The notes beneath the pieces are model-generated. The model ran no database searches and was not told where the DNA came from. It saw only the letters and a program-made list of their open reading frames with translations. A DNA stretch of 32,000 bases from Candidatus Saccharimonadota bacterium (GTDB lineage: Archaea; Nanohalarchaeota; Nanosalinia; Nanosalinales; Nanosalinaceae): NCBI RefSeq assembly GCF_047555085.1, contig NZ_CP180230.1:930001-962000 (forward strand), given 5' to 3'. Made by a program: the position numbers and the translations under genes. Below, piece after piece: positions 1 through 32,000 of this stretch. How positions within the stretch are numbered: position 1 is the first letter of the stretch; every line of letters begins with the position of its first letter.

Positions 1-210
1 GTGGATATGATCATCGAGTTCGAGAAAAAAGTTCTTGAGGACGGTGAAGTGAAATGGTCTTCTACTGGGAAAAGCAAGATGACGACTAAGACGGAGTTTG
101 AGCTTTTGTTGCGGAACTCAAGTTTCTCAGAGTGGAATGTCTACGGTGGTTTTGATCTTGAGGAGCTGGAAAACTCGGAGCAGGAGATGGTCTGGATAAT
201 AGAGAAATGA
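1..210 (+). CDS. C-terminal fragment of a probable class I SAM-dependent methyltransferase (5' end lies outside the window)
   Basis: The reading frame is open from base 1. The tail (...NVYGGFDLEELENSEQEMVWIIEK) resembles the usual C-terminus of small SAM methyltransferases. Its stop overlaps the next start (ATGA at 207-210). Function is assigned on weak similarity only. Confidence 0.4.
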   Translation: MDMIIEFEKKVLEDGEVKWSSTGKSKMTTKTEFELLLRNSSFSEWNVYGGFDLEELENSEQEMVWIIEK

Positions 211-596
211 AGCTGAAAGTTTTCGATACAGAGATTTTTCTGGATGAAAGTCTTGTAGAGGCCTCTGAAGACGAGATCAGGAGACAGGTGAAAGAGTATC
301 TTTTAGGAGAACAAGAAGTTTTTGAACTGGATTTTTCGAGGCCGGAAAATTTTACAGGGAAAGTTATGGAGGAGATGCTGGAGATCCCGCGTGGCGAGAC
401 CAGAAGTTACGGCGAGATTGCAGAGGCCTTGGATTCTGCTGCGATTGCTGTTGGTCAGGCCTGTGGAAGGAATCCTTTGCCGTTGATTGTTCCTTGTCAC
501 AGGGTTGTCGGGAAAAGTTCTGTTGGTGGTTACTGCGGTGAGAAAGACAGTTTGGCGAAGAAAAAGTTGCTGGAGCTGGAAGAGTCAGATTTTTAA
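207..596 (+). CDS. ogt: Methylated-DNA--protein-cysteine methyltransferase (O6-alkylguanine-DNA alkyltransferase)
   Basis: The active-site motif IVPCHRVV is present, preceded by an HTH-like segment (RSYGEIAEALDSAAIAVGQACGRNPLP). At 129 aa it is typical of a short archaeal Ogt. Confidence 0.85.
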   Translation: MKLKVFDTEIFLDESLVEASEDEIRRQVKEYLLGEQEVFELDFSRPENFTGKVMEEMLEIPRGETRSYGEIAEALDSAAIAVGQACGRNPLPLIVPCHRVVGKSSVGGYCGEKDSLAKKKLLELEESDF

Positions 597-668
597 CTCT
601 GCCCGCAAAAATTCTGGTTACAATGAAAGGTGGATGTGTTTCTACCGGCTACGTTTGCAACTTGTAGG

Positions 669-699
669 CCTGTTTTAGGTCAGTTAAAACCTGTTTTAG
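669..699 (+). promoter_or_regulatory. Two exact copies of CCTGTTTTAG, 21 bp apart, abutting a TATA-like GATAAAAATTT upstream of serS
   Basis: The copies are at 669-678 and 690-699. The TATA-like element is at about 699-709 and the ATG at 728, which suggests a leaderless or near-leaderless mRNA. Confidence 0.3.
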
Positions 700-727
700 A
701 TAAAAATTTCTGCACAAGTGATTATAC

Positions 728-1996
728 ATGTTAGATATTGAACTGTTCCGTGAGAGTCCTGAGATTATTAAGGCCTCTGAGGAGAGGCGTGGGAAAGATC
801 CTGAAAGAGTTGATAAAGTAGTTGAATTGGATGAGGCCTGGCGTGAGACTTTGCAGAGGCTTCAGGAGCTTCAGGAGAAGCGGAACTCTGTCGGGGACAA
901 GATTGCTGAACTGAAAAAGAACGGTGAGGATGCCCAAGAATATATTGAAAAGATGCAGGAGGTTAAAGAGACGATCTCCGAGCTTGAAGAAGATGTAGAA
1001 GCTTTGAAGGCGGAGCGTGATGAGTTAAGATATCGTGTAGGGAATGTTCTGCATGATTCTGTTCCTGAGGGAGATGATGAAGATGATAACAGGGAGATCA
1101 AGACATGGGAGCCGGATTCAGGCATAGATGAAGATGCGGAGCTTGCTGCGGATATCCTGCAGGAGAACGATCTCGTGGAGACTGAGAAAGCGGCTGAATT
1201 ATCCGGCGAACGCGCTTATTATCTGAAAAATGAGTTGTTCCGCTTGAATCAGGCCTTGATCCAGTTCTCGATGGATCTGCTTGAGGAAAAAGATTTCACG
1301 CCTATGCAGACTCCTTACTACTTGAAGCACAGGCCTATGGAGGCTGCTGCAGAGCTTGAGGATTTTGAGGAGCAGCTTTACAAGATCGAGGATGAGGATA
1401 AGTACCTGATTGCGACTTCGGAACAGACTCTGGCGACTTTCCACATGGATGAAATTTTGCAGCCTCAGGATCTTCCGAAGAAGTACGCCGGATTTTCCAC
1501 GAACTTCAGGCAGGAGGCCGGTAAGCACGGACAGGAGACTCGTGGGATCTGGCGCGTCCACCAGTTTGAGAAAGTTGAGCAGTACATTTTTTGCGAACCG
1601 GAGGAAAGCTGGGATAAACACGAGGAGTTACTTGAAAATTCCGAGGAAGTTATGCAGAAGCTAGGCCTTCCGTACAGAGTTGTCAACGTCTGTACAGGCG
1701 ACATGAACGATAACGCGGCTAAAAAGTACGATGTTGAAGTGTGGAGGCCTCCTCTTCAGGAGTACGGAGAAGTTGTGTCCTGCAGTAACTGTACTGATTT
1801 CCAGGCCCGAAAAGTCGGTGTCCGGATCAGAAGGGACGGCGACAATGAGACTGCTCACACGTTGAACGCGACAGCGTGCGCTACTTCAAGAGTTATGACG
1901 GCTATCATCGAGAACAATCAGACTGAGCAGGGGATCAAGATTCCTGAGCCGCTTCAGAAGTACATGGGCGGAAAAGAGTTTATCGAATTAGAGTAA
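728..1996 (+). CDS. serS: Seryl-tRNA synthetase (class II)
   Basis: 422 aa. It has an N-terminal coiled-coil tRNA arm (MLDIELFRE...) and class II motifs (FRQEAG..., GEVVSCSNCTDFQARK, LNATACATSRVMTAIIEN). Confidence 0.95.
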   Translation: MLDIELFRESPEIIKASEERRGKDPERVDKVVELDEAWRETLQRLQELQEKRNSVGDKIAELKKNGEDAQEYIEKMQEVKETISELEEDVEALKAERDELRYRVGNVLHDSVPEGDDEDDNREIKTWEPDSGIDEDAELAADILQENDLVETEKAAELSGERAYYLKNELFRLNQALIQFSMDLLEEKDFTPMQTPYYLKHRPMEAAAELEDFEEQLYKIEDEDKYLIATSEQTLATFHMDEILQPQDLPKKYAGFSTNFRQEAGKHGQETRGIWRVHQFEKVEQYIFCEPEESWDKHEELLENSEEVMQKLGLPYRVVNVCTGDMNDNAAKKYDVEVWRPPLQEYGEVVSCSNCTDFQARKVGVRIRRDGDNETAHTLNATACATSRVMTAIIENNQTEQGIKIPEPLQKYMGGKEFIELE

Positions 1997-2000
1997 ATTC

Positions 2001-2018
2001 AGGCCTTGAGATAGGCCT
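2001..2018. terminator. AGGCCT-N6-AGGCCT hairpin-capable element between convergent serS and the 379-aa ORF, followed by T-rich sequence
   Basis: AGGCCTTGAGATAGGCCT: the two self-complementary hexamers can form a 6-bp stem with a 6-nt loop. TTAATTTTCTCTT follows. Confidence 0.3.
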
Positions 2019-2030
2019 CTTAATTTTCTC

Positions 2031-3170
2031 TTATATCCTTGTCCGGACACGTCTTTCGTCAGGAAGAATGTCTGGATCCCATCCTTCCGCTAAGTAGTCA
2101 ACTATTGTTTCATCAGGAAGTTCGTCCATGTACTGTTGGGCCTCTCTGTAGTCGTCTTTCCACTGATTGGCTATCTGTTCAGCTACTGGTTCCGGATAGT
2201 CATGGTTTTCAGTCAGAGTTTTGACAAGAGTGTCAGGGAATGCCTTGTAATCCTGTCCTCCGAAGAAGTATTGCTGGCTTTTCACAGCGCCAGAAAATTC
2301 GTTGTCAACGAAGACAGGGAATCTTCCTTCTCCGTCCTGCCACGAGTCTATAAAGAACTCGTCTTTTCTGTCGAACCAGTTAATTATCTGTAAGTTGGCG
2401 AGATTAGCATAATATTTCGCAAGGCCGTCTGTATCGCTGTTTCCTAGGCCTCCTTTGAAGACGTCTTCGAGACTGTTTCGCAATACGTAAACGCTTCCAT
2501 CGTCTTCAACATCTACAGCAGTCCATTTAGTCGGTGTAAGAGGCCTTGCTGCTTCATTATCTCTTACATCAGCATAGTATGACATTAGTGCTGTCTGAAG
2601 ATCTCTTTCGTCTATCATAGTAACTGATTCATTGAAATCAGCCATATCACCAGATCCTATGCTTCTATGGTAAACATCATCGTGTTTCATCCTGTTGAAA
2701 TCTGTGTTTTTATGGAGTCTGTACAGTGTTTCATCGTCTAGAGGCCTCCAGTGTCTCAATACAAGTTCCTTGTCTGATTCCTCTGATTTCAGAAACATGA
2801 CGTTCGGCATCGAAAGTATTCCGCCGGCAGGAATATTCTGACGGGGCACAACACTGTATCTCTCACCATCAATATCTGCATATGCATCAAATTCACTTTT
2901 AGTCTCCGCAAAACGTGTTTCAGCCTCACGAACCAGTTCCCTATTCTTTTCTTTCACTTTCTCGTTTTGAGAGGCCTGTCTGTCACCCATTGTAGAACGA
3001 TACTCTCTAACAACCTGATTTCTTTCATGGTTCGACTCAAGAACAGGCTCGAGAGGATCATAAACACTGAAAAGACTCTCTGCATGAACTTGCTCTCCGT
3101 CAAGATAGAAGTCTACATCTTTAATTCCCAGTACATCAGGCCCGAGCATATTGTTACTTTGTAGTGACAT
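2031..3170 (-). CDS. Hypothetical acidic cytoplasmic protein with no recognisable motif
   Basis: An uninterrupted 379-codon ORF with an ATG start. Its D/E-rich composition matches neighbouring genes. I see no signal peptide or TM segment and no family I can name. Confidence 0.65.
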   Translation of the reverse strand: MSLQSNNMLGPDVLGIKDVDFYLDGEQVHAESLFSVYDPLEPVLESNHERNQVVREYRSTMGDRQASQNEKVKEKNRELVREAETRFAETKSEFDAYADIDGERYSVVPRQNIPAGGILSMPNVMFLKSEESDKELVLRHWRPLDDETLYRLHKNTDFNRMKHDDVYHRSIGSGDMADFNESVTMIDERDLQTALMSYYADVRDNEAARPLTPTKWTAVDVEDDGSVYVLRNSLEDVFKGGLGNSDTDGLAKYYANLANLQIINWFDRKDEFFIDSWQDGEGRFPVFVDNEFSGAVKSQQYFFGGQDYKAFPDTLVKTLTENHDYPEPVAEQIANQWKDDYREAQQYMDELPDETIVDYLAEGWDPDILPDERRVRTRI

Positions 3171-3251
3171 TCTTTTATCCTTTTCTGTTGAATGGCCGAA
3201 TTAAAAAATCAAGCCTGTAATTATAGAACTGTTGGTGTAGATTAAAGTATT

Positions 3252-5312
3252 ATGCAGACGACAGTGATGGTCGGTGAGAAGCCGAACGTTGCCAGTAAAC
3301 TGGCTCAGGCCCTGGGAGATTACAGTATGAAGAAGAACCGCGGGGTAAAAAATTACATCATTGAGACAGACGATAGACGTATAATCATCGCACCTGCTGT
3401 CGGACACATATTCAATCTTGATTCTACTGAAGAGGGCTGGGATTACCCTGTTTTCGATGTAGAGTGGAAGCCTACCTTCGAGACCAGTGATTCTGCCGAC
3501 TACATGAAAAAGTACTACAATAATCTCAAAGACCAGCTTGAGAAAGCAGATACATACATTAACGCATGCGACTTCGATCTTGAAGGGAGTGTTATCGGTG
3601 CCAACGTCATCAAGCAGATCACAGGAGCTTCAAACGAGCAAATAGAGCGTATGAAGTTCTCCACACTTACCAAAAGTGATCTGCAGGAGGCCTTTGATAA
3701 TCTGGAGAGCTTCGATGAGGGAATGACAGATGCAGGAATCACACGACACATACTGGATTATTACTACGGTGTCAACGTTTCACGGGCATTGATGCAGGCT
3801 GTACGTGAGAATGACCGCTACAAGACTCTGTCCACAGGCCGTGTACAGGGACCGGCACTGAAAGTGCTTGCCGATCGTGAAAGAGAGATCATGGAGTTCG
3901 AGCCTGATCCTTACTGGGAGATTTTCCTGCACCACTCAGAGTTCGATGCGAAGTTCCAGGAAACAGGTGCCGATAGAGACAAGACCGACAGGATCTGGAA
4001 GGAAGAAGACGCTAATCAGGTTTTCAACACGGTTAAAGGAGAGAAAAAAGCCCGCGTATCGAATATAAAAGTCAATAATTACAGCCACAATCCTCCTGTG
4101 CCTTTTAACTTGACAGGCCTTCAGAAAGAGGCCTCCAGCCAGTTCAATCTTTCTCCGAAGAAGACTCAGTCTATTGCACAGTCTCTTTACGAAGATTCTC
4201 TGATTTCGTATCCTCGTACCGAGTCCCAGAAATTGCCTGCGAAGCTTGGATACAAGAATCTGCTTAACAAGCTTAAAGGTCAGGACGACTACAGTGAACT
4301 GGCGAAGAAGGTTCTGAAGAAGGATAAAAACGATAATATGTATCCTCGGCAGGGGAAGAAGGAGGACGATGCGCATCCTGCGATTTATCCGACGGGTGAG
4401 AGGCCTTCGAATCTTTCTAAGATGGAGAGGAAAGTGTATGATTTGATTGTTAAGCGTTTCTTTGCGGTGTTCGGAGATGCTGCGAAGAGGCAGTCTCTGA
4501 CTTTGACGCTTGATGTACTTGGATACGACTTTACAGCGAAGTCAAAGGTTACAAAGGAGCGTAACTGGTTTGATCTTTATGATCCATATGTTAAAGTTGA
4601 GGAGGCGGAGCTTCCAGGTGTTGAGGAAGGTGAGAAGCTTGATGTTGAAGGCTTTGATCTTGAGGAGAAAGAGACGCAGCCACCTCGACGTTACAGCCAG
4701 TCTGGAATTGTTTCAGAGCTTGAGAAGAAGAATCTTGGTACCAAGGCTACGAGAGCTGCTACGGTTGATAGACTGTATGACAGGAATTATATCGAGGGCT
4801 CTCCTATCGAGGTCTCTGATCTAGGGCTTGCGATAGTCGAGACTCTGGAGAAACATGCTCCTGATCTTATGAGCGAGGAGCTTACTCGTGAGTTCGAGGA
4901 AAAGATGGAGGCTATCAGGAACAGCGAGGAAACAAGCGACGAAGTAGTTGAAAAAGCCAGAGAAGAGCTGGAAGAGACATTGATGAAGTTCAAGGAACAG
5001 GAAAAAGAGATAGGTGCTGAACTCGTCGATACCATAGACTCAGAGAGAAAGAGAAGACGACAGCTCGGCGACTGTCTTGAATGCGACGACGGCACGTTGC
5101 GCATCATAAAAAGCAACGGAAACCGTTTCGTAGGCTGTTCCAACTACCCTGACTGTGAGAACACTTTCCCATTGCCGAGAAACGGCGAAATCAACAGTAT
5201 GGAGGACGTATGCGAGGAATGTGGCAACCCGAAGATATATGTCAGCAGGGACTCAGGGAACGACTACAACATGTGCATCGATCCCGACTGCCCTACAAAG
5301 GATGACTGGTAG
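3252..5312 (+). CDS. topA: DNA topoisomerase, type IA
   Basis: Toprim N-terminus (VMVGEKPNVA ... CDFDLEGS) and active-site tyrosine context ISYPRTESQ. Two C-terminal Cys4 zinc ribbons are present (CLECDDG...CSNYPDC and CEECGNP...CIDPDC). Confidence 0.93.
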   Translation: MQTTVMVGEKPNVASKLAQALGDYSMKKNRGVKNYIIETDDRRIIIAPAVGHIFNLDSTEEGWDYPVFDVEWKPTFETSDSADYMKKYYNNLKDQLEKADTYINACDFDLEGSVIGANVIKQITGASNEQIERMKFSTLTKSDLQEAFDNLESFDEGMTDAGITRHILDYYYGVNVSRALMQAVRENDRYKTLSTGRVQGPALKVLADREREIMEFEPDPYWEIFLHHSEFDAKFQETGADRDKTDRIWKEEDANQVFNTVKGEKKARVSNIKVNNYSHNPPVPFNLTGLQKEASSQFNLSPKKTQSIAQSLYEDSLISYPRTESQKLPAKLGYKNLLNKLKGQDDYSELAKKVLKKDKNDNMYPRQGKKEDDAHPAIYPTGERPSNLSKMERKVYDLIVKRFFAVFGDAAKRQSLTLTLDVLGYDFTAKSKVTKERNWFDLYDPYVKVEEAELPGVEEGEKLDVEGFDLEEKETQPPRRYSQSGIVSELEKKNLGTKATRAATVDRLYDRNYIEGSPIEVSDLGLAIVETLEKHAPDLMSEELTREFEEKMEAIRNSEETSDEVVEKAREELEETLMKFKEQEKEIGAELVDTIDSERKRRRQLGDCLECDDGTLRIIKSNGNRFVGCSNYPDCENTFPLPRNGEINSMEDVCEECGNPKIYVSRDSGNDYNMCIDPDCPTKDDW

Positions 5313-5313
5313 A

Positions 5314-6168: not shown

Positions 6169-6264
6169 TATGCAGCAAGACCGGACTCGAGGCCTAAATA
6201 GATTTTCCAGGAGAAAGGATTAGAGACCTCAACAGTTTTACATCCGGAGATATAATACAGAGAT

Positions 6265-7664: not shown

Positions 7665-7676
7665 GAATTTTTACCT

Positions 7677-8453: not shown

Positions 8454-8456
8454 AAA

Positions 8457-8732: not shown

Positions 8733-8772
8733 GTAGATACAGTTGAGGCCTACATTTTAGAATTTTTCCGTG

Positions 8773-9462: not shown

Positions 9463-9560
9463 AGACGAATAAAGTGTTACAACTCTTTTATCCTTAATCA
9501 GTTGATTTTCCGGAAGAGATTCCGAGGCCTTAAATTCAGGTCTCAGTAAAAAAGTCCTGT

Positions 9561-10022: not shown

Positions 10023-10058
10023 ATCTTTATTTTCAGGCCTCCTCTCGTCAAAAAGAAT

Positions 10059-10445: not shown

Positions 10446-12721
10446 CAGATGAAAATTCAGTGAAGCTGCGTGTTGGGGAAGTACCTCCTAACGCCCAGCA
10501 GGACATCGGAAAAGGTATTGTCAGAATTGACAGCAAAATCATGGAAGAGATTGACGTCCGTGAAGGAGAGGCCGTTGTAATCGAGGGAGATCGTGAGACA
10601 GCAGGAAGAGTTGCCAGAAGCTATCCTGCGGACAAAGGCCTCGGTATAGCACGGATGGATGGATACATGCGAAAGAATGCAGGCACAAGCCTGGGAGAAA
10701 ACGTCTCCGTGAGAAAGGCAGACATCCAGAAGGCTGAGGAGATCACTCTTGCTCCTGCCGAGAAAGGCGTCATGATGCAGGTTTCGAATCCGAATATCTT
10801 CAAGAAAGGACTGGCCAATCGTGCAGTTATGCAGGGAGATATCGTCGTACCAGGAAGTGATCGGGACAGGCCTCAGGGAATGTTCGACGACATGCCATTC
10901 GACTTCGATATGGACAAGTTCGCATTCAGTTTCGGCGGCGATACAAAACTGATGATTGTAAAGACAAAGCCGAAAGGCCCTGTACAGATAACTAGAGACA
11001 CAGAGATCAAGGTAAAGAAGCAGGCAGTCGACGAGCAGGAGCAGCAGCGTGTCAAAGTTCCGGACGTAACGTACGAGGACATTGGAGGCCTGGATGAAGA
11101 AGTTCAGAAAGTTAGAGAGATGATCGAACTACCTCTAAAACACCCTGAAGTCTTCCAGCAGCTTGGAATCGACGCACCATCAGGAGTACTACTCCAAGGA
11201 CCGCCAGGAACAGGTAAGACACTCCTGGCAAAAGCAGTAGCCAACGAATCGAACGCTACTTTCCTTTCTATCGATGGCCCGGAGATCATGTCAAAGTACT
11301 ACGGAGAATCAGAGAAACAGCTCCGTGAAAAATTCGAAGAGGCCCGCGACGATGCTCCAGCAATAATATTCATCGACGAAATCGATGCCATCGCTCCAAA
11401 GAGAGATGATACGGGAGGAGAAGTAGAAAGACGTGTTGTAGCACAGCTACTCTCAGAGATGGATGGTCTGGAAGCAAGAGAGAACGTCATCGTTATAGCA
11501 GCTACAAATAGAGCAAACGCCATCGATCCAGCATTGAGGAGAGGAGGACGTTTCGACAGAGAGATAGAGATCGGAGTTCCAAACAGAGATGGAAGGAAAG
11601 AAATTCTCCAGATCCATACACGAAACATGCCTCTTGCAGACGACGTAGATCTCAATGAGCTTGCAGATAAGACTCACGGCTACGTGGGAGCTGATCTCGA
11701 GACTTTATGCAAAGAGGCCGCGATGTACGTCCTCAGAGAGGTGCTTCCTGAGATAGATCTGGACGAGGAGATTCCTAGTGAAGTGCTTGAAGACCTGATA
11801 ATCGACAGAGATGCTATGATAAAAGGCATGAGAACTGTAGAGCCTTCACAGATGCGTGAAGTCATGGTGGAAGTACCACAGGTCACCTGGGATCAGATAG
11901 GAGGCCTCAACGAGACAAAGGAACGACTTCAGGAAATGGTAGAATGGCCACAGGAATATCCAGAAAGATTCGAGAGAATGGGCATAGAAGTACCGAAAGG
12001 AATCCTTCTATACGGACTTCCTGGAACAGGAAAGACACTCCTGGCAAAAGCAGTAGCCAACGAATCCAACTCGAACTTCATCTCAGTTAAAGGCCCGGAA
12101 CTACTTTCCAAGTACGTTGGAGAATCAGAGAGCGCCGTAAGAGAAGTATTCAAGAAGGCTAGACAGGTAGCGCCGTGCGTACTGTTCATCGACGAGATAG
12201 ACTCTATCGCTCCACGCAGAGGATCCAGAAGTTCGGACTCCGGTGTAGGAGACAGAGTTGTGAATCAGTTGCTGACTGAGCTGGATGGAATAGAAAGCCT
12301 TGAAGGAGTTACTGTCATTGCGGCGACGAACAGGCCTGATATGATTGATCCTGCAATCATGAGGCCTGGAAGGATCGACAGGAATGTTGAAGTGGATGTT
12401 CCGGATGTAGAGGCCCGGAGAAAAATTTTCGAGGTCCATACGAGAGATATGCCTCTGGCCGATAATGTTGATCTTGATGAGCTTGCTGAGGAGACTGATG
12501 GCTTCGTCGGCTCTGATATCGAATCAGTGTGTAGAGAGGCTGGCATGGATGCTCTTCGAGCCGATGGCGATGCATCAGAAGTCACAATGGATGACTTCGA
12601 AAGCGCGATAGACGATGTGAAGCCTACAGCTACGGAGGAGAATCTAGAGCGCTACAGATCGATGATGAAGAAGATGCAGGATATAGAGCAGAGCGAAGAG
12701 ACTCCTGATTACTTCGGATAA
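10442..12721 (+). CDS. cdc48: Cdc48/VCP-type AAA+ ATPase (two AAA domains)
   Basis: 759 aa. It has an N-terminal double-psi-barrel-like domain, Walker A GPPGTGKT and GLPGTGKT, Walker B IIFIDEID and VLFIDEID, and second-region-of-homology arginines. Confidence 0.95.
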
Positions 12722-16387: not shown

Positions 16388-16553
16388 AGTTTGATTCTTG
16401 GTGCAGAACTCCTTAATTCTTTTTCCAAAACCCGATCTAACAGAATTGAACAGGGAAAACTGGCGAAGGAGGCCTGTAGAGGATTTTACAGTCCGCAGAT
16501 AAACGTTCATTCAGAGGCCTGATTTAAAATCCTTCGGAGACGAATAGGCATGT

Positions 16554-25913: not shown

Positions 25914-26729
25914 ATGCCTGAATGTGATTTCTGTGGCGAGGAGTTCGAGTCTGATCTGGAGCTTCACGTTCACTGGGGTGAAGAGCATGAGGATGAACTT
26001 AATTCTCATCAAAAAGATACTGTAAAGAAAGCTAGGAGAGAAAAAGAGGAACAGGAGAAGAAGGAAAGTGAGAGAAAGAAGAATCTTGCTTTCAAAGTTC
26101 TTGCCTCCGGTGTAGCGATCGTTATTGCTGCTATTCTAATCCCTCAGTTGCTTAACGCAGGTAACGGCGGAGATGCGTCCAACAGCACCGCCAGCTTTAC
26201 GCTTGAAGGTGAGCCGGTACTTGGAAATGAAAGCGCCAACGTCAGCATAGTCGCTTTCGAGGATTTCTACTGCCCTTCATGCAAGAGCTTCAATGACGGC
26301 GTGAAGCCTAGACTTGAAGATAATTACATCGAAACAGGTCAGGCAAAGTTTTACTACCTCGACTTCCCTCTGGACTTCCACGATCCACAGGCCACAGCTG
26401 CATCGGTCGCAGCAGAATGTACTTACCAGCAGGACGAGGAATCTTTCTGGCCTGTACACGATGCACTGTACGATGTGCAGAGAAGTATAGATTACACTCC
26501 TGAAAGACTGACTCAGTTAGTCGAAGAAAACACTGAAGGCCTTGACTACGAGGCAATACAGTCCTGCATAGCAAGTCAGGAAACAGTTAACAGAGTAAAC
26601 GAGGACATGAGAGAAGGCCTCAACGCAGGTGTCTCAGGTACACCAACAATCTTCGTGAACGGAGAACAGGCCTCAGACTTCAGGTACTCAACACTTGAAA
26701 GCATGATAGAGGACGAACTAGCAGGCTAA
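25914..26729 (+). CDS. Second fusion protein of C2H2 zinc finger, TM helix and DsbA-like thioredoxin domain (paralog of 12794..13765)
   Basis: C-x2-C-x12-H-x4-H (ECDFCGEEFESDLELHVHWGEEH), a K/R-rich stretch, TM segment AFKVLASGVAIVIAAILIPQLL, then DsbA-type VAFEDFYCPSCKSF and GTPTIFV. I prefer the ATG at 25914; the ORF track starts at 25893. Confidence 0.8.
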   Translation: MPECDFCGEEFESDLELHVHWGEEHEDELNSHQKDTVKKARREKEEQEKKESERKKNLAFKVLASGVAIVIAAILIPQLLNAGNGGDASNSTASFTLEGEPVLGNESANVSIVAFEDFYCPSCKSFNDGVKPRLEDNYIETGQAKFYYLDFPLDFHDPQATAASVAAECTYQQDEESFWPVHDALYDVQRSIDYTPERLTQLVEENTEGLDYEAIQSCIASQETVNRVNEDMREGLNAGVSGTPTIFVNGEQASDFRYSTLESMIEDELAG

Positions 26730-26737
26730 AGGCCTTC

Positions 26738-26772
26738 AAAAAGGGGATTACTCCCTTTTTCCCAAATTTTTT
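26738..26772. terminator. Hairpin (AAAAAGGG / CCCTTTTT, 7-nt loop) plus a T6 run, between convergent DsbA-paralog and polB genes
   Basis: Stem 26738-26745 pairs with 26753-26760. The TTTTTT run is at 26767-26772. Confidence 0.4.
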
Positions 26773-26797
26773 CTCAAAAAATTCTACATTATAACTT

Positions 26798-29197
26798 CTA
26801 GCTGAATCTTCCAAGGCCGCTCTGTCTGCCTTTGCCTTTGAGCTCATCTTCAGTGTATCCAAAAACTTTGAGAACTCGTACAGCAGCAGGCACAACCTGG
26901 TTATCTATATAATAGTCCGGATCATAGTTATCGGCGAATTTCGTAAGTTCAGCTCTCTCTGAGATACCTCCACCACCGCGAGTAACAACATAATCAACTG
27001 TAGTCTCCGGCTCTATATCCATGCCTCTTTTCCTGGCTTTTTTCACGGCCTCAACGTGCGGAGCCGTGGATCCGTACTCTTCAGGGGGCTTTGTCAGTGT
27101 CGTATGAATCTTCAAACGTTCCACAGGCATTTCCTGATTTTTCAGGGCCTCTATAGTTTCTTTGACTTCTTCAGCGGCCTCCGAGATCCTGTCCTGGAGC
27201 ACAAGATTCAAGACTTTTTTCTGAGTTTCTTTGGCCACAGGACTCCAGTCCCTTCTCACCTGCTCGAAGCCTGTGATCTTGAGGCCTCCTTCTTCATCCA
27301 TCAATGCGTACTTCTTCTTGGCTCCTTCGCCTGAGGCCTTCGACGTGAAGAATCCTCGTACGAAGTAGCCCTCGAACTCCAGTTCCATGAACTCAGGAAG
27401 AGTCGAGTTAACTTTCTCGAGGAAACTTTCTTTCCTTTCCTTGACGTCCTCTCCCTGTATGAAGACCGAGTCAGTATCGCCGTAGACGATCTCGAATCCC
27501 ATCTCCTCGGCGATATCTATAGTATCCTCGATATACTCTCTTCCAAGATACGTAGTGGCCTGTGCAGACTCCTTGGAATACCATCGTGCTCCATCATATC
27601 CCAGATACCCATAGAACGAGTTGGCGAGGATTTTCTGGGCCTGCTGGCGGCTGTAAACCCGTTCATACTCGAGAGAGTCTTCCTCAAGATCCTTTAACTT
27701 CTCCTTCAATTCATACCTGCTTCCTACCAGGCCTTCGATAAGCTCCGGGAAAAATCCCTGTTCATCCTGACAGAAAAAGAAGTCGAACTCCTCCAGAGTA
27801 AATTTTTCATCGCAGTCCTCGAGATCAAGGACTTCAGGCGAAATATTATGAGCCACCATAACCGTCGGATACAGAGAACGGAAATCAAAAACAGAAACAT
27901 CTTCATAGAGGCCTGAATCCGGAGTATATACAAAACCTCCCTCGTAAGCTCCCTGATTCTGCCTTCTTCTCCTTTCATTCCTTGTAGGCCTGTTAGGCGC
28001 CAGCATGTTCCTGTTGAAGGCCTCTCTGAGGAGGAAGTTTTCCGTCAACTGTCCGTAAGTCAGCCTGCACGCATCGAACGGTATGAGGCCTGTGATCCTG
28101 GAAAGCTCCATTATCTGCGGCACAAGCTCTTCAGAAAGCCTGTAGGCCAGCTCGGAATCTCTTAAATTGTATCTTGCAAATTTTTCCAGATTTTCGCTGT
28201 CTCTCCACCACTGTTTCATCTCTTCAAAAGTTACTTCATCCTTGTTCTCTCCCAGCATCTCTTCAGCTACAGAATCAAGGTCAAGAGTCTCCGAATCAAG
28301 GCCTGGAGCTACTACATGTGATATGAACGGGAAAAGATCGAGATGCATCCTACCCTTCAGTCTTGCTCCCTTGAAGCGGCCTCTCCTGTTGTATTTCATT
28401 CTTTCGCCATCTCTGCCAAGCGAAAGCTCCATCCCGTATTTCTGGACTCGTTCTCTGAGTACACCGAAATCAAACTCATCGGTGTTGTACCCTGTTATTA
28501 TATCGGTATCTCTATCCTCTATTATCGCCATAAATCTCTGTAAAAGCTCTTTCTCGGATTCAAAAGTCTCAACAAAATCTTCATCGATCTCCCCAGTAGA
28601 AAGAACTTTTTCAAAATCTTCACCGTAGAAAGAGGCCATAACTACCTCTTCATCGATTACTTCAAGATCGAAAGCCAGTTTGGAGAAACTTGGCTCCTCT
28701 TTATCGGATTCAGTGACTTCTTCAAGTAAAATTTTTCGTTCAATATCTCCAGAGGCCTGTTCTCCGTTCACGCGAACTGTTTCTCCAGGCCTTATCCCTC
28801 TATCGATCAGAAATCTTTTGTAGAATGGTATATCAAATTCTCTGCATTCCTTGACTTCCTGCATCTTACTTACGGGATACTTCAGTTTAGGGACGTTCGC
28901 CGGTATATCTGTGGAGATCTTCAGGGCCTTTACCTCCTCTAGGCCTAATTTTTTGTCCTGTATCTCTATTTCTCTTACTTCCAAGGGTTCATCGTCGTCA
29001 TCTGTGAACTGTCTGCTTTCTATCTCTTCCTTCAGTTCTTCAGCGTTTTCATTCGGGACTGCGTAGAAGTATGGCTGCAGTTGTCTGTCCTCTATGAGGA
29101 TATTCTCTCCTGCTGCTGTTTTTCCGAAAGCCCTTATCAGGACTTCACCGTTGTCTATACGGTAGTCAGCATCGATTACAGTTACGTCAGTTTCCAC
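26798..29197 (-). CDS. polB: DNA polymerase, family B
   Basis: 799 aa. Motifs present are Exo I FDLEV, Pol motif A DFRSLYPTV, motif B KILANSFYGY, and motif C YGDTDS. GTG start. The length shows no intein-sized insertion. Confidence 0.95.
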   Translation of the reverse strand: METDVTVIDADYRIDNGEVLIRAFGKTAAGENILIEDRQLQPYFYAVPNENAEELKEEIESRQFTDDDDEPLEVREIEIQDKKLGLEEVKALKISTDIPANVPKLKYPVSKMQEVKECREFDIPFYKRFLIDRGIRPGETVRVNGEQASGDIERKILLEEVTESDKEEPSFSKLAFDLEVIDEEVVMASFYGEDFEKVLSTGEIDEDFVETFESEKELLQRFMAIIEDRDTDIITGYNTDEFDFGVLRERVQKYGMELSLGRDGERMKYNRRGRFKGARLKGRMHLDLFPFISHVVAPGLDSETLDLDSVAEEMLGENKDEVTFEEMKQWWRDSENLEKFARYNLRDSELAYRLSEELVPQIMELSRITGLIPFDACRLTYGQLTENFLLREAFNRNMLAPNRPTRNERRRRQNQGAYEGGFVYTPDSGLYEDVSVFDFRSLYPTVMVAHNISPEVLDLEDCDEKFTLEEFDFFFCQDEQGFFPELIEGLVGSRYELKEKLKDLEEDSLEYERVYSRQQAQKILANSFYGYLGYDGARWYSKESAQATTYLGREYIEDTIDIAEEMGFEIVYGDTDSVFIQGEDVKERKESFLEKVNSTLPEFMELEFEGYFVRGFFTSKASGEGAKKKYALMDEEGGLKITGFEQVRRDWSPVAKETQKKVLNLVLQDRISEAAEEVKETIEALKNQEMPVERLKIHTTLTKPPEEYGSTAPHVEAVKKARKRGMDIEPETTVDYVVTRGGGGISERAELTKFADNYDPDYYIDNQVVPAAVRVLKVFGYTEDELKGKGRQSGLGRFS

Positions 29198-29279
29198 AGG
29201 ATTATTTTTCCGGGCCGAGAGTTAAGTAAATGGATTCCTGTGTCAAAGACTTAAGTTGTCAGGCCTTCAAAGACAGTTT

Positions 29280-29936
29280 ATGAGGACACTTCTGATAACT
29301 GATATTCACGGAGATACAGACAAGCTGGAAAAAATAATTGAAAAAGAGGATTTTGAGGCCATCCTGTGCGCCGGAGATCTTTCAGATGCCAGAGAGTTCG
29401 ATGACTACGAGGGAAAGCTGGATGAAGTGCTTGACCTTTTCGATAAGAAAGACAAGCTCGTTAAAGCCGTCCCCGGGAATATGGATCCTGAAGAGGCCTG
29501 TGTGAAGGCCTTGAGGGAGCGAAGAATCAATTTACACAGGAAGATCGGATCTTTCGATGGCTTTGAGGCTGTTGGCCACGGAGGAGGAATCACTCCTTTC
29601 GGCACTCCTTTCGAGCCGTCAGGAGAGGAAATCAAGAACGCTGTGGAGACTTTGAGCGAGCGGATGAAGGCAGATACACGTCTGGCTGTTATCCATCAGC
29701 CTCCGGCGAACAGTGAACTGGATATCGCAGATGGCGAGCATGTGGGCAGTCCGGAAGTAAGAGAGTTACTTGAAGACTCCGAGTTCGATCTCGTTCTGAC
29801 AGGCCATATCCATGAATCCCGAGGCAGAGATAAGTTCAACGGGACTGTGGCAGTAAATCCAGGGCCTGTACTGGAGGGCTACTATGCTGTTGCAGAGATA
29901 GGTGATGGCATCGCAGTTGAAATGAAGCAACTGTGA
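29280..29936 (+). CDS. Calcineurin-like metallophosphoesterase (YfcE/MJ0936-like)
   Basis: Motifs DIHGD, GDL, GNMD, GHGG and TGHIHES occur in the canonical order. I prefer the ATG at 29280 (MRTLLITDIHGD); the ORF track starts at TTG 29256. Confidence 0.8.
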   Translation: MRTLLITDIHGDTDKLEKIIEKEDFEAILCAGDLSDAREFDDYEGKLDEVLDLFDKKDKLVKAVPGNMDPEEACVKALRERRINLHRKIGSFDGFEAVGHGGGITPFGTPFEPSGEEIKNAVETLSERMKADTRLAVIHQPPANSELDIADGEHVGSPEVRELLEDSEFDLVLTGHIHESRGRDKFNGTVAVNPGPVLEGYYAVAEIGDGIAVEMKQL

Positions 29937-30084
29937 CTTTTTCACAATATCTACAGGCCTTTCCGGAGAATGCCAGAGTTTATACAGTGGTAGAATGGAG
30001 AGGCCTTTTCCCAGTGTTTTCTTTTTCATTTGTAAGAGTTGTCTACAGGACGATAACTGTTTAACGTGTGCTGCACGCCACATA

Positions 30085-30094
30085 TTTTTATATA
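30085..30094 (+). promoter_or_regulatory. TATA box TTTTTATATA of the histone gene
   Basis: A canonical archaeal TATA sequence about 55-60 nt upstream of ATG 30147, which implies a 5' UTR of about 30 nt carrying the Shine-Dalgarno site. Confidence 0.5.
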
Positions 30095-30127
30095 GGAGTA
30101 GAACGTAAATTATCAGTACAAGCCTTA

Positions 30128-30137
30128 AAGGAGGTGA
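30128..30137 (+). promoter_or_regulatory. Shine-Dalgarno AAGGAGGTGA of the histone gene
   Basis: It gives an 8-9 nt match to the anti-SD sequence and lies 9 nt upstream of ATG 30147. Confidence 0.65.
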
Positions 30138-30146
30138 CACTATACA

Positions 30147-30344
30147 ATGGCAGAACTACCACTAGCACCTGTAAAGAGAATTATCAAGCAGGCCGGCGCT
30201 TCAAGAGTTTCAGAGGACGCAGTAGAAGAACTAAGAGATGAACTAGAAGCACACGCAGAGGATCGTGCAAGAGAAGCAAAGCAGTACGCTGAGCACGCCG
30301 GCAGAAAGACAGTACAGGCAGCAGACGTTAAGACTTCAAGATAA
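30147..30344 (+). CDS. Archaeal histone (HMf family)
   Basis: A 65-aa histone fold (MAELPLAPVKRIIKQAG...RKTVQAADV). A strong Shine-Dalgarno AAGGAGGTGA and a TATA box lie upstream. Confidence 0.9.
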   Translation: MAELPLAPVKRIIKQAGASRVSEDAVEELRDELEAHAEDRAREAKQYAEHAGRKTVQAADVKTSR

Positions 30345-30416
30345 AGTTTTTTCTTGAAGAGGCCTGTACGTTTCATACTTCCTTTTTTTATTTCTCACCG
30401 ATCAGATTGTTCTACA

Positions 30417-31160
30417 GTGAAACTGGAAAACTCATTTATCCTGTTCCCTGGCATTGGCCAGAAGACCGAGAAAAAACTCTGGAAAGACAATATACGGCAC
30501 TGGGACCATCTTGAAGACTCTTCTAAGCACAATAAAGTTCAGGAACACATGGAGAAGGCCCGCAAAAATTTGAAAGTGAATAACTCAATTTACTTCGACG
30601 ACAAACTCCCAAACAAAAGCCTGTGGAGAGCCTACAAAAATTTTGAGAAAGATGTCACGTTCTTCGATATCGAGACAACAGGCCTGAAGCCGGAAAGGAA
30701 CAAGACCACGACAGTAAGTTTCTACCGTAACGGCGAATCAAAGACATTAATCAGAGGCCAGAATCTGACTCGTGAAAAACTTGAAAACGAGATTTTCGAG
30801 TCATCTATGCTTGTCTCATTTAACGGGAAGCGTTTCGATGCTCCTTTCCTGGAGAAAAACTTTGACTTGAATATCGAGACGCCGCACATCGATTTGATGT
30901 ATCCGTGTAAACGACTTGGATACAGTGGAGGCCTGAAGAAGATCGAGAAAGACTTGAAGATTCAGCGAGAACTGGAGGATATCGATGGAAGGGAGGCGAT
31001 CAAGCTGTGGAAGAAGTACGAGAACAACGGTGACGAAGAGGCCTTGAACAAGCTTGTCAGGTACAATCAGTACGACGCCGAGAATCTTCAGGACTTGCTT
31101 GAGATCGTCCGTGAAAAATTGATCGAGAAAGTGGCTGACAGGCCTGAAAGATTCGAGTAG
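30417..31160 (+). CDS. RNase-H-fold 3'-5' exonuclease-like protein (YprB / COG3359-like)
   Basis: An HhH-like N-terminus (LFPGIGQKTEKKLW) and DEDD-type segments FFDIETTG, SFNGKRFD and YNQYDAENL. I prefer the GTG at 30417, which lies 29 nt downstream of a T7-A-T3 TATA-like element. The ORF track's TTG 30354 extension is hydrophobic/basic and unlikely to be coding. Confidence 0.7.
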   Translation: MKLENSFILFPGIGQKTEKKLWKDNIRHWDHLEDSSKHNKVQEHMEKARKNLKVNNSIYFDDKLPNKSLWRAYKNFEKDVTFFDIETTGLKPERNKTTTVSFYRNGESKTLIRGQNLTREKLENEIFESSMLVSFNGKRFDAPFLEKNFDLNIETPHIDLMYPCKRLGYSGGLKKIEKDLKIQRELEDIDGREAIKLWKKYENNGDEEALNKLVRYNQYDAENLQDLLEIVREKLIEKVADRPERFE

Positions 31161-31750
31161 AGGCCTGCAAAGGTTTTCCGGATACTTTTTCCTTTTCCGC
31201 TGTGCATGTTTGGAGGGAAAACTTAAAAGGGTCGACTTCTAATTAGAGGTTGAAGAAAATGGCCTTGGTTAATACTATTTCACCCGCTGGAAACATGTGG
31301 ATGGATCTGGTGAGGTGCACCCATACCGAAAACAAGGCCAAGGCTTTCTCCATTATTAATTATCTGGCAGAGTAAAGTGGGATGAAGTCTTGGCCGACAT
31401 TGACTGGCCAAGTACCGACCGCGAATACTCAAAAAACCAAATTCTTGACAGCCTCTCGTTCTACCTCTATGGAACATGGAATGAGGGCTTGGGCAGTGTG
31501 CTGCTTGCAAGGTGGTGCACTGTCCTTGGCACCTATCTAGTCTATCTGTAAAAGATACGATACGTACAACGATCAGAGGTGCAATACACACAATGGATGC
31601 GAACACACGCCACTTCGAAACCGAGCTTCAGGCTCAGCACGAAGAGACCACTCGACAGACTACCGATGTCTCACCTGAAGCAAACGTTGTCCCGGCAACA
31701 GCACTTTAAACCAGAAAAACAAGAATAAAGAAGATTACAGGCCTCCAGAA

Positions 31751-31999
31751 TCAGTCCTGACTCTGGTATGCCGCCGACTCGAAGGCAGCCCAGCCGTTGG
31801 CCATAGAATCAAGCATCGAGGTGAAAGACTTCGCTGGCTTGATGACTTTTCTGCGGCCCTGAGAGCCTTCTCTCGAATCACGGTACTCCAGATACTCGTA
31901 CTGAATTGCCCCTAAACGCCGGAGCTTAGGCAGAATATTGTTTTTCAGATTGGAGAGGCCTTTCTCGTGTCCCCATTCATCGAAGTTATTCAGTTTCTC
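31751..31999 (-). CDS. C-terminal 82 codons of a hypothetical protein (5' end beyond the window); absent from the ORF track
   Basis: This is the only open frame on the minus strand at the window edge (83 codons including stop TGA at 31751-31753). It reads ...EKLNNFDEWGHEKGLSNLKNNILPKLRRLGAIQYEYLEYRDSREGSQGRRKVIKPAKSFTSMLDSMANGWAAFESAAYQSQD. I recognise no family. Confidence 0.45.
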   Translation of the reverse strand, partial: EKLNNFDEWGHEKGLSNLKNNILPKLRRLGAIQYEYLEYRDSREGSQGRRKVIKPAKSFTSMLDSMANGWAAFESAAYQSQD

Positions 32000-32000
32000 G

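Follow-up and report, generated by a model that had tools for sequence, protein, structure and literature searches.

Why does one palindromic hexamer recur every two hundred bases or so in the DNA of a nanohaloarchaeon (DPANN), and what could keep it there? The window, i.e. the whole stretch of 32,000 nucleotides analysed here, has a GC content of 46.7% and holds exactly 151 copies of AGGCCT, about one per 211–212 bp, with 16 in the first 3 kb; the original prediction had counted the same 16 and about 150 in all. Base composition predicts 6.7 copies, which makes the excess 22.5-fold, close to the earlier estimate of about 6 expected copies and a 25-fold excess. AGGCCT is the most frequent of the 4,096 hexamers in the window, the runner-up among over-represented palindromic hexamers reaching only 2.4-fold, and the favoured unit is the full hexamer, as had been proposed: the other NGGCCN contexts number 24, 11, 5, 13, 19 and 16 copies. 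Dinucleotide-preserving shuffles (n=100) yield 8.2±2.9 copies (maximum 16), and with motif-poor relatives as an empirical null (0.24/kb) the enrichment of the window is about 19-fold. Codon or dipeptide preference, already dismissed as the cause on first reading, is ruled out by synonymous-codon shuffles (n=500), which give 17.5±4.1 copies (maximum 31) against the 132 observed in coding sequences.

An order-4 (maximal-order) Markov model, suggested earlier as a check, expects 141 copies, near the 151 observed (ratio 1.07), and at face value this speaks for a trivial origin of the excess, be it biased codon or dipeptide use, a family of dispersed repeats or an artefact of assembly. However, the sub-words AGGCC (199 copies in the window), GGCCT (191) and GGCC (270) are mostly AGGCCT itself, so that the ratio is uninformative: the null is no sound test of a word that accounts for most occurrences of its own sub-words, and the circular result leaves the excess unrefuted. 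A trivial cause, whose probability is negligible, is refuted by the codon shuffles, by an observed/expected ratio of 21.6 in non-coding DNA, by unrelated flanks and a lack of tandem arrays, and by the recurrence of the signal across different studies, in metagenome contigs as well as in independent MAGs and a complete genome. As foreseen, the bases around the sites vary almost freely, with at most 0.15 bit at any flank position (position -1, where T is avoided) and a faint palindromic extension, AG-AGGCCT-CT. Pairwise flank identity between copies is 9.18/30, compared with 8.94/30 at random positions, and the copies are therefore independent sites rather than members of one longer repeat family.

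While 132 of the 151 sites lie within 27 coding sequences and 19 are intergenic, their density is 4.64/kb in coding and 5.34/kb in non-coding DNA. Genes of both strands carry them, in all codon phases (26, 55 and 51 copies), in line with the original prediction; the six sites claimed for serS, which occupy six of its seven eligible contexts, fall at the positions and in the three phases given for them. Among related genomes the excess is phylogenetically scattered, with three or more motif-rich clades (8–23-fold) standing among sister lineages at background level, and one of the motif-rich loci, L008, is the complete genome M3_22 (observed/expected 9). The trait has been gained or lost several times among close relatives.

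Along the DNA, AGGCCT sites are more evenly spaced than chance. Counts per bin in the window are under-dispersed, with a variance-to-mean ratio (VMR) of 0.42–0.55 (P=0.001–0.038) and of 0.47 at 1 kb (P=0.005), and the VMR lies below the null in all nine motif-rich loci. The evenness persists when conditioned on eligible contexts (combined P=1.7e-4, 500-bp bins), and eligible contexts that remain unoccupied sit closer to another AGGCCT (combined P=1.4e-5), an interference signal absent from the window and from locus L001 taken individually. The pressure for AGGCCT is weaker where another site is already close, and this results in even spacing. Such repulsion bears on an RNA-level role, one of three explanations offered earlier, in which transcripts would pair through their AGGCCU copies or bind an RNA-binding factor there. 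A palindrome is indeed present in RNA whichever strand is transcribed, and the intergenic pair AGGCCTTGAGATAGGCCT, located where serS (stop at 1996) converges on a minus-strand gene ending at 2031, could make a terminator-like hairpin. This pair is, however, among the few close ones in the window, where gaps below 40 bp number 19 against 25±4 expected. Sites keep apart rather than cluster, their intergenic density matches the genic one, and no copy lies in the conserved candidate structured RNA at 31,240–31,560. An RNA-level role is therefore scarcely credible.

How strong is the pressure? In the window, 131 of 176 eligible amino-acid contexts (74%) hold AGGCCT, compared with 37 of 585 (about 6%) in 11 motif-poor loci; Arg-Pro is encoded as AGG-CCT in 26 of 29 cases, and the motif fills 54 of 78 [KEQ]A[FLSYCW] and 51 of 69 xGL (xxA-GGC-CTx) contexts. 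The log odds ratio in coding DNA is 3.8, the logarithm of the observed/expected ratio in non-coding DNA is ln 21.6 = 3.1, and both are fitted by one scaled, selection-like coefficient (S≈3–3.8 per site). The pressure drives all six positions, the outer A and T as strongly as C and G, around a GGCC core, the stringency at the outer positions differing between lineages; one-off variants are graded, with positions of unequal importance.

These features also bear on the first of the earlier explanations, a drive of the Vsr type. In enterobacteria, Dcm and Vsr cause an excess of CCWGG and a depletion of CTAG-type neighbours, a modest effect that concerns only C<->T exchanges of the methylated cytosine. 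AGGCCT would resemble CCWGG as a candidate methyltransferase target of repair-shifted abundance, with m5C in the motif and T:G to C:G repair turning AGGTCT and AGGCTT into AGGCCT. The depletion of transition neighbours that this entails is found in coding DNA, where AGGTCT/AGACCT is about 2–3 times rarer in motif-rich loci (41 vs 96; 0.28–0.33/kb vs 0.83/kb). In non-coding DNA it is gone (10 vs 8 for AGGTCT/AGACCT, 13 vs 4 for AGGCTT/AAGCCT), so that the coding depletion stems from saturation of synonymous contexts. Moreover, the effect is about 20-fold and extends to the outer A and T, which reach 74–90% occupancy at synonymous sites and which C-restoring repair is incapable of driving. No Vsr-like ORF was found in the window or any related locus examined, and M3_22 is listed without a Vsr gene, its sole methyltransferase being predicted as m4C-forming (PMC10609329). 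The Vsr form of the idea is thus largely refuted and very improbable, while the link to a methyltransferase stands as the leading idea.

Could a protein other than a methyltransferase read the motif? Direct selection on each site for a nucleoid-organising or segregation protein, or for a Chi-like nuclease stop that marks DNA as 'self', agrees with even spacing under diminishing returns, equal coding and non-coding density and the importance of all six positions; for HIP1, Xu et al. argue that selection acts on chromosomal distribution rather than on individual sites (PMC5861425). Yet sister lineages with the same biology are entirely without AGGCCT, so that such a function would have to be one that lineages can do without and have acquired or abandoned several times. 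Individual sites turn over as well, occupancy at co-eligible contexts being roughly independent across genomes (odds ratio 0.6–2.5 for pairs with the window), and the window yielded no candidate protein. We consider this explanation unlikely.

Among the closest known systems are the cyanobacterial "highly iterated palindromes", HIP1 (GCGATCGC) and the alternate HIPs (Elhai 2015, PMC4390886; Xu et al. 2018, PMC5861425), themselves unexplained, of which AGGCCT in nanohaloarchaea would be the archaeal counterpart. Like them, it is a short, GC-rich, perfect palindrome, with enrichment in the range of 15–300-fold, sites that are independent of one another and fall in non-coding DNA as well as in every reading frame, a non-random distribution along the DNA, and replacement or loss by lineage. 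Its one-base deviants cluster at the first and last bases, a bias reported for HIPs (PMC4390886), and both are circumstantially associated with an orphan methyltransferase recognising the core, for AGGCCT a putative one. The differences lie in the host, a DPANN archaeon, in a GGCC-core hexamer instead of a CGATCG-core octamer, and in a density about five-fold that of HIP1 (1 per 211 bp vs about 1 per kb); in addition, AGGCCT nearly saturates its synonymous opportunities, with demonstrable parallel amino-acid replacements, is much patchier among close relatives, and has a methyltransferase that is still a candidate.

We therefore favour, tentatively and with a probability of about 40%, an element of the HIP/USS class that a symmetric, lineage-specific DNA-binding protein recognises, an orphan methyltransferase being the likeliest such protein. 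That AGGCCT is a selected or selection-like recognition site, the second of the earlier explanations, is the class supported by the single coefficient, the even spacing and the overridden protein sequences. Thousands of independent copies per genome would have arisen by point substitution, not copying, and in certain nanohaloarchaeal lineages a genome-wide, selection-like directional pressure would hold them at about one per 200 bp. One lineage-specific protein may read the motif as a symmetric dimer, most likely an orphan Type II methyltransferase of StuI/HaeIII-like specificity, whose methylated sites could mark the DNA at regular intervals for genome maintenance. Selection, or an Elhai-type methyl-directed repair ratchet, would go on favouring new sites until every stretch of DNA is within reach of a mark; we know of no methyl-directed mismatch-repair nickase, which the ratchet requires, in archaea. 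In favour of a methyltransferase, the sole restriction-modification-related gene listed for M3_22 is an orphan Type II enzyme, predicted to form m4C (PMC10609329 Tables 1–2), AGGCCT-specific methyltransferases exist in nature (PMC12128166), and each alternate HIP of cyanobacteria co-occurs with a matching one (PMC4390886). The link is circumstantial, as neither the window nor about 600 kb of related loci yielded a methyltransferase gene; a methylome has been published for a single nanohaloarchaeon, Nanohalococcus, and shows GDGCHC, unrelated to AGGCCT (PMC10266531).

AGGCCT shares its dyad symmetry with StuI-type (AGGCCT) and HaeIII-type (GGCC) restriction-modification targets, is the same word as the former, and parallels their natural variation in flank stringency around GGCC. 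Genomes with active systems, however, normally hold their own site at or below expectation, whereas AGGCCT is hyper-abundant here and M3_22, the one surveyed motif-rich genome, is without a restriction enzyme. Alcanivorax borkumensis, which has an AGGCCT restriction-modification system and 1,674 sites per genome, methylates the motif and has only about 0.5 copies of it per kb (PMC12128166), and a methyltransferase alone thus does not cause accumulation.

A further reading is an uptake-like signal without benefit of its own, spread by molecular drive through an uptake or transfer receptor as conspecific fragments bearing AGGCCT are taken up and recombined more often. The resemblance to the USS of Pasteurellaceae and the DUS of Neisseriaceae is considerable: these, too, comprise thousands of evenly spaced copies derived by point mutation (PMC2817400, PMC1939737; for the spacing of USS, Karlin, cited in PMC1939737), with graded over-representation of mismatched forms and lineage-specific dialects, under a selection-like drive, equal for AGGCCT in coding and non-coding DNA, that needs no cellular function. 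Peptide contexts compatible with AGGCCT are about 1.8 times commoner in the window than in motif-poor loci, and USS 'approximately doubled' its encoded tripeptides (PMC2817400). Nevertheless, USS and DUS are asymmetric, span 9–12 bp with extended flanks and occur about once per kb, while AGGCCT is a perfect 6-bp palindrome carrying far less information at about 5 per kb, a density above that of uptake sequences, as originally noted. In form, a palindromic hexamer with a GGCC core is archetypal for Type II methyltransferase or restriction sites. USS and DUS depend on a sequence bias in DNA uptake that has been demonstrated in naturally competent bacteria, and we know of no competence or sequence-specific uptake in DPANN archaea, nanohaloarchaea included. 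Uptake is thus a doubtful origin, although the equilibrium pattern expected from uptake drive is also that of selection and of biased gene conversion, which makes the three inseparable with present data.

Whatever its agent, a motif kept about every 200 bases in some tiny, salt-loving symbiotic archaea has altered their proteins. Eligible contexts number 4.7–6.0/kb in motif-rich loci (except L008, 3.1/kb), compared with 2.8–3.4/kb in motif-poor ones. At 30 of 56 aligned window sites the amino-acid context is derived, the orthologues being incompatible with AGGCCT, and 20 derived columns are common to at least two motif-rich clades. The pressure suffices to drive conservative replacements to fixation, and has done so repeatedly and in parallel.

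AGGCCT sites and associated features in the window
Feature	Position	Strand	Remark
AGGCCT array, 151 independent sites	1..32000	.	mean gap 211 bp
serS site, phase xAG-GCC-Txx	771..776	+	one of 6 in serS
Other serS sites	834, 1251; 1331, 1745; 1663		xAG-GCC-Txx; AGG-CCT; xxA-GGC-CTx
Intergenic pair	2001..2018	.	copies at 2001 and 2013; possible 6-bp stem
Intergenic AGGCCT 16470 and 16515	16470..16520	.	divergent promoter region, malic enzyme / gene starting 16554
Amino-acid-altering site, ADP-forming acetyl-CoA synthetase	20384..20389	-	ACS column 555
Amino-acid-altering site, E1-alpha subunit	21399..21404	+	orthologue alignment
Amino-acid-altering site, E1-beta	22305..22310	+	Lys-Pro to Arg-Pro
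Amino-acid-altering site, E1-beta	23018..23023	+	orthologue alignment
Amino-acid-altering site, E3 (dihydrolipoamide dehydrogenase)	24934..24939	+	orthologue alignment
Amino-acid-altering site, E3	25297..25302	+	orthologue alignment
Amino-acid-altering site, family-B DNA polymerase (PolB)	27334..27339	-	orthologue alignment
Synonymous-only site, PolB	27986..27991	-	PolB column 1260
Amino-acid-altering site, metallophosphoesterase	29494..29499	+	orthologue alignment

At site 27986 only codons have changed: Arg-Pro is present in 15/15 motif-poor orthologues, and every motif-rich genome encodes it as AGG-CCT. Elsewhere the residues themselves differ. Acetyl-CoA synthetase has Arg-Pro in the window and Lys-Ala in 5/5 motif-poor orthologues, and E1-alpha has Ala-Gly-Leu vs Ala-Gly-Ile in 6/6, with AGGCCT also in clade C (L005, L032) and GGGCCT in clade B. 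In E1-beta, the replacement at 22305 occurred in parallel in clades A and C, while site 23018, with Lys-Gly-Leu in place of Asn-Gly-Leu/Ile or Ser/Ala-Lys-Leu, carries AGGCCT in all three motif-rich clades. The E3 sites show Arg-Gly-Leu vs Arg/Lys-Glu-Leu/Val in 10 motif-poor orthologues (24934) and Ala-Gly-Leu vs Thr-Glu/Asp-Val (25297, AGGCCT also in L005 of clade C). Against their motif-poor orthologues, PolB has Lys-Ala-Ser instead of Thr/Lys-Asp/Glu/Ser-Ser at 27334, and the metallophosphoesterase Glu-Ala-Cys instead of Glu-Glu/Asp-Cys. A second AGGCCT lies at 29506, 12 bp past the 29494 site.

What kind of element is the palindromic hexamer AGGCCT in this DNA? With 151 copies in the 32,000-base window (GC 46.7%), it ranks first among all 4,096 hexamers, and other palindromic hexamers reach 2.4 times expectation at most; the 16 copies initially counted in the first 3 kb are exact. 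Base composition predicts 6.7 copies in the window, a first-order Markov model 8.2, and 100 dinucleotide-preserving shuffles 8.2±2.9, with a maximum of 16. Codon bias is rejected as an explanation, as 500 synonymous-codon shuffles of the coding sequences yield 17.5±4.1 copies (maximum 31) against 132 observed, and even this null errs on the conservative side, as the presence of the motif raises the usage of GCC, GGC, AGG and CCT. An order-4 Markov model expects 141 copies, a ratio of 1.07, and in the original prediction a ratio near 1 would have spoken against the excess. However, the motif makes up the bulk of each of its sub-words (AGGCC 199, GGCCT 191 and GGCC 270 copies), so that conditioning on them erases the signal by construction; the excess stands. 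The maximal-order Markov null was therefore dropped as circular; codon shuffles took its place, together with an empirical null from motif-poor relatives. In nine related loci, AGGCCT is 8–23 times more frequent than expected. With 151 copies against 6.7 or 8.2, this short perfect palindrome attains the over-representation of at least ~15-fold typical of the highly iterated palindromes (HIPs) of cyanobacteria. Its density is greater than that of every described HIP or uptake sequence, in agreement with the earlier claim that uptake sequences are sparser.

The sites in the 27 coding sequences of the window (4.64 per kb) fall into all codon phases, 26 as AGG-CCT, 55 as xAG-GCC-Txx and 51 as xxA-GGC-CTx, and affect plus- and minus-strand genes equally, as first described; a further 19 are intergenic (5.34 per kb), and the pooled non-coding observed/expected ratio is 21.6. 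Enrichment in three reading frames as well as in non-coding DNA is a further trait of HIPs. Bases next to the motif vary almost without constraint; T is disfavored at position -1, the largest bias (0.15 bit), and the motif tends weakly towards the longer palindrome AG-AGGCCT-CT. The 30-base flanks of different copies share 9.18 of 30 identities, compared with 8.94 of 30 at random positions, no pair reaches 20 of 30, and no tandem arrays of the motif were found. As the flanks show no similarity beyond that of random positions, the copies are independent sites, as in HIPs, and not parts of a longer mobile repeat. Descent from one repeat family, which would have undone the original prediction, is thus contradicted, and a dispersed repeat, MITE or REP element is rejected on the same grounds and because point substitutions at orthologous codons give rise to the sites. 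The window contains no tRNA or Rfam-recognized RNA genes. As a separate observation, AGGCCTTGAGATAGGCCT could, judging from its sequence, form a hairpin with a 6-bp stem and is a candidate bidirectional terminator.

The proteins of the window are archaeal and extremely acidic, and the relatives of its family-B DNA polymerase are Nanohaloarchaea without exception, the best being a metagenome-assembled genome (MAG) with 79% amino-acid identity; a scan of metagenomes for close strains returned none closer than 68%. Among 38 related loci, the AGGCCT excess is all-or-none and phylogenetically patchy. Motif-rich loci (observed/expected 8–23) form clade A, which holds the window together with L001 and L029/L034, clade B with L004 and L008 (the complete genome M3_22), and clade C with L005, L032 and L037 (the SG9 MAG); L028, a Nanohalobium, is also motif-rich. 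Background levels (0–2.3) are found in the interleaved sisters L014 and L002, L009 and L010, and L030, L031 and L033, as well as in Nanosalina J07AB43 and Nanosalinarum J07AB56. To explain this pattern, the trait must have been gained or lost two or three times at the least. By name, the motif-rich genomes include M3_22 (CP046106), SG9 (LFCJ01), B1-Br10_U2g29 (LKMQ01), NHA29 (JALDAN01) and Nanohalobium spp., and the motif-poor sisters include J07AB43, J07AB56, JBEQAY01 and CAYMJB01. Near-matches in L014, the closest motif-poor sister, are not above those in distant motif-poor genomes, giving no sign of ghost sites from a recent loss; L037, with many five-of-six matches and few complete ones, looks partly decayed or relaxed. 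No alternative palindrome of comparable abundance was found in motif-poor lineages. L016 (CAZTXA010000003.1), a GC-rich motif-poor nanohaloarchaeal contig, has 7 copies of CGATATCG where 0.2 are expected and 14 of GATATC where 2.2 are expected, which may represent a weak alternative iterated palindrome, and CTGCAG is enriched 4–8-fold in L028, L008, L014 and L019. L010 (JBLGBK010000002.1), in a record titled 'MAG: Colwellia polaris', encodes a nanohaloarchaeal PolB (61% identity) in synteny with the window; probably, the contig was wrongly binned into a bacterial MAG. Among the matches listed, viral contigs with dense AGGCCT mostly carry tandem arrays; dispersed sites occur in L039 (IMGVR_UViG_3300029432_000018; 13 sites in 3.6 kb, GC 36%) and L124 (22 sites in 10.8 kb, GC 53%), both viral and not halophile-like, so that AGGCCT may also be hyper-abundant in other, non-archaeal hosts.

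How far has the motif penetrated the coding sequence? Eligible contexts, in which synonymous codons for the amino acids can spell AGGCCT, are Arg-Pro; Lys, Glu or Gln followed by Ala and then Phe, Leu, Ser, Tyr, Cys or Trp; and x-Gly-Leu following a codon that allows a final A. The window has 176 such contexts, and 131 of them (74%) carry the motif (26/29 Arg-Pro, 54/78 Ala and 51/69 Gly-Leu contexts), compared with 37 of 585 (6%) across eleven motif-poor loci. At synonymous sites, 74–90% of contexts have the outer A/T positions fixed; as the synonymous positions involved span all six bases of the motif, outer A and T included, every position is driven. Eligible contexts are themselves ~1.8 times commoner than in motif-poor relatives, at 4.7–6.0 per kb in motif-rich loci (3.1 per kb in L008) versus 2.8–3.4 per kb. 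Codon alignments for nine sets of orthologs cover 56 window sites, of which only 21 lie in a context eligible in most motif-poor orthologs, while for 30 these orthologs carry incompatible residues; examples of derived sites are given in the table. With all motif-rich genomes pooled, 70 of 104 motif-bearing columns have a derived context, and 20 of these have the motif in more than one clade, namely in two or three. Half of the window sites are positionally shared with L001, and where amino acids are conserved between the two, 25 of 32 motif hexamers are identical, versus 27% of other hexamers. However, in jointly eligible contexts, occupancy is near independent between genomes (odds ratios of 0.6–2.5 for pairs involving the window), so that sharing probably reflects saturation and turnover rather than inheritance, and site conservation is not taken as a sign of purifying selection. 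Highly conserved proteins, CDC48 and topoisomerase I among them, have few eligible contexts, yet these are highly occupied.

Positions of derived AGGCCT sites and of further features in the window
Window position	Feature	Detail
207-596	ORF of an Ogt/MGMT-type O6-alkylguanine-DNA alkyltransferase	PF01035, E=1.4e-24
2001-2018	AGGCCTTGAGATAGGCCT	located precisely between the stop codons of two convergent genes, serS and its minus-strand neighbor
20384	derived site	KA to RP
21399	derived site	AGI to AGL
22305	derived site	KP to RP
23018	derived site	NGL to KGL
24934	derived site	REL to RGL
31,240-31,560	candidate unannotated structured RNA	~300 nt
31,593-31,709	conserved 38-codon ORF	MDANTRHFETELQAQHEETTRQTTDVSPEANVVPATAL; third-position variation among relatives
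from ~31,800	minus-strand gene	runs off the window end

The sites are also spread more evenly than expected by chance. The variance/mean ratio of counts in the window is 0.55, 0.47 and 0.42 at 500, 1,000 and 2,000 bp (P=0.001–0.038), and each of the nine motif-rich loci has a ratio lower than the null, compared with 1.0–1.7 for frequent control hexamers. This under-dispersion is kept when conditioned on the real eligible contexts (P=0.001–0.006 in the window; combined P=1.7e-4, 0.008 and 0.017). With physically overlapping contexts left out, the distance to another site is shorter for unoccupied than for occupied contexts in L005, L032, L029 and L037 (combined P=1.4e-5), and pooled occupancy climbs from 0.43 to 0.66 with distance from another site; in the window or L001 singly, this short-range interference is not significant. 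Together, under-dispersion and interference argue for diminishing returns of the underlying pressure, as expected for a density set-point. A non-random spatial distribution, here of under-dispersed counts and short-range interference on the 32-kb scale, is again a property of HIPs, a long-range periodicity having been described for the cyanobacterial HIP1 by Xu et al. (PMC5861425). An RNA-level role, which had been suggested since the copies could pair with one another, is rejected: close pairs are not enriched in the window, where 19 gaps are shorter than 40 bp against 25±4 expected.

Compared with motif-poor relatives of similar GC, variants deviating at an outer base are enriched 1.6–6-fold in motif-rich loci, with 108 versus 18 copies of GGGCCT/AGGCCC, 93 versus 41 of CGGCCT/AGGCCG and 88 versus 56 of TGGCCT/AGGCCA, whereas inner variants are not, as is characteristic of HIPs. 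Clades A and C show no enrichment of GGCC in which both flanking bases deviate from the motif; in clade B, GGCC is raised ~4-fold in every flank context, and AGGCCT makes up 25–33% of GGCC, versus 56–68% in clades A and C. The element common to the clades is the GGCC core, with lineage-specific flank stringency. A mutational drive by Vsr-like T:G repair coupled to a methyltransferase, as proposed at the outset, would act on the methylated C/G positions only, and the fixation of the outer A/T positions does not fit this. AGGTCT/AGACCT is depleted in motif-rich loci (41 versus 96), but only in coding DNA; the non-coding counts are 10 versus 8, and 13 versus 4 for AGGCTT/AAGCCT, and the anticipated shortage of C-to-T neighbors is thus missing there. 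The coding depletion is therefore no Vsr signature and reflects mass drawn to the motif within saturated synonymous sets. No Vsr-like gene was detected in the window or in the related loci (~600 kb), nor does a published survey list one for M3_22 (PMC10609329), and this drive is left unsupported.

How strong is the pressure? In a reversible model, with the neutral frequency multiplied by exp(S) at equilibrium, S≈3.1 follows from the enrichment in non-coding DNA (21.6) and S≈3.8 from the coding odds ratio (74% versus 6%), so that a single weak selection-like pressure per site accounts for both compartments. Such a pressure also makes clear why no amino-acid replacements other than near-neutral ones are recruited. 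One pair of motif-rich 22-kb nanohaloarchaeal contigs from two metagenomes, L029 and L034 (Ga0102939_1000023 and Ga0209946_1000028), is 99.92% identical with 18 differences, including a GGGTCT/GGGCCT at 18729 and one at 12128, the base directly 3' of a motif; as the only near-identical pair, it has too few events to be of use for polarizing substitutions. This lineage favors the extended palindrome AGAGGCCTCT.

Our characterization identifies AGGCCT as an archaeal HIP with a GGCC core, which has convergently reshaped codon usage and proteins in several nanohaloarchaeal lineages. As its likeliest mechanism, to which we assign a probability of about 40%, the target of a lineage-specific orphan methyltransferase would accumulate to a density set-point, either by selection for the mark or by a methyl-directed repair ratchet. 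HIP1 and alternate HIPs resemble AGGCCT in the scale of enrichment, the occurrence in all frames and non-coding DNA, the one-base deviants at the ends, the non-random distribution and the lineage-specific presence, and they are associated with often orphan methyltransferases that recognize the motif or its core, a methyl-directed repair ratchet saturating at a set density having been proposed (PMC4390886, PMC5861425). For M3_22, a REBASE-based survey lists one orphan Type II methyltransferase, predicted to be m4C-forming, and no Vsr, restriction enzyme or other restriction-modification gene (PMC10609329). Signature expressions and BLAST probes (approximate M.HaeIII and E. coli Vsr sequences) detected no DNA methyltransferase gene in the window or the ~600 kb of the 38 nanohaloarchaeal loci, and Pfam searches of unannotated window ORFs gave no DNA-recognition candidate. 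The only published nanohaloarchaeal methylome, of Nanohalococcus, has the motif GDGCHC, unrelated to AGGCCT (PMC10266531, PMC11001535). AGGCCT-specific methyltransferases do exist; Alcanivorax methylates AGGCCT, yet has only 1,674 copies per genome (PMC12128166), so that a methyltransferase alone is not sufficient for accumulation.

A drive of the uptake type is a live alternative, as AGGCCT resembles the uptake sequences (USS/DUS), by which competent Pasteurellaceae and Neisseriaceae preferentially take up DNA, in its even spacing, in the roughly doubled frequency of the peptides it encodes and in the logic of a molecular drive (PMC2817400, PMC1939737). However, these are asymmetric, longer and sparser, with a core of 9–12 bp and an extended consensus in the flanks, while AGGCCT is a perfect 6-bp palindrome with flanks of at most 0.15 bit. 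Direct selection for a binding site is likewise live. We consider it rather unlikely that AGGCCT is a mark of 'self' needed at high, even density, be it a palindromic, Chi-like or methylation-based signal that would shield the cell's own DNA from nucleases scavenging host DNA, or a first archaeal DNA-uptake or exchange signal. If so, an ectosymbiont would have rewritten its genome and proteome for a six-base password, and sister lineages with and without it would reveal the reader protein.

No paper on AGGCCT abundance in archaea turned up in the literature searched. To our knowledge, the HIPs of cyanobacteria have been known for ~25 years without an accepted mechanism, and the nanohaloarchaeal motif adds a case that is independent of these and comes from a second domain of life. 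Here, small genomes (~1 Mb) are an advantage, M3_22 being a complete motif-rich genome reported with a single restriction-modification-related gene, and as the trait is switched on or off between close sister lineages, presence/absence genomics should pinpoint its determinant. Given 74% saturation and parallel replacements, modest population data can tell mutation bias, selection and gene conversion apart. At S≈3–4, a pressure on the DNA also skews the usage of GCC, GGC, AGG and CCT codons and the di- and tripeptide content in DPANN archaea, where convergent protein changes caused by the motif would mislead phylogenies and tests for positive selection; it thus bears on DPANN annotation and evolutionary inference. 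Beyond the motif, the window contains several features of its own. The Ogt/MGMT-type ORF is a DNA-repair gene without any link to AGGCCT. Near the end of the window, at 31,240-31,560, lies a conserved segment without a plausible acidic ORF, Rfam match or AGGCCT, for which RNAalifold, applied to five nanohaloarchaeal homologs, predicts local hairpins with compensatory changes (alignment A1, columns 46–82, 141–202 and 263–316), making it a candidate structured RNA.
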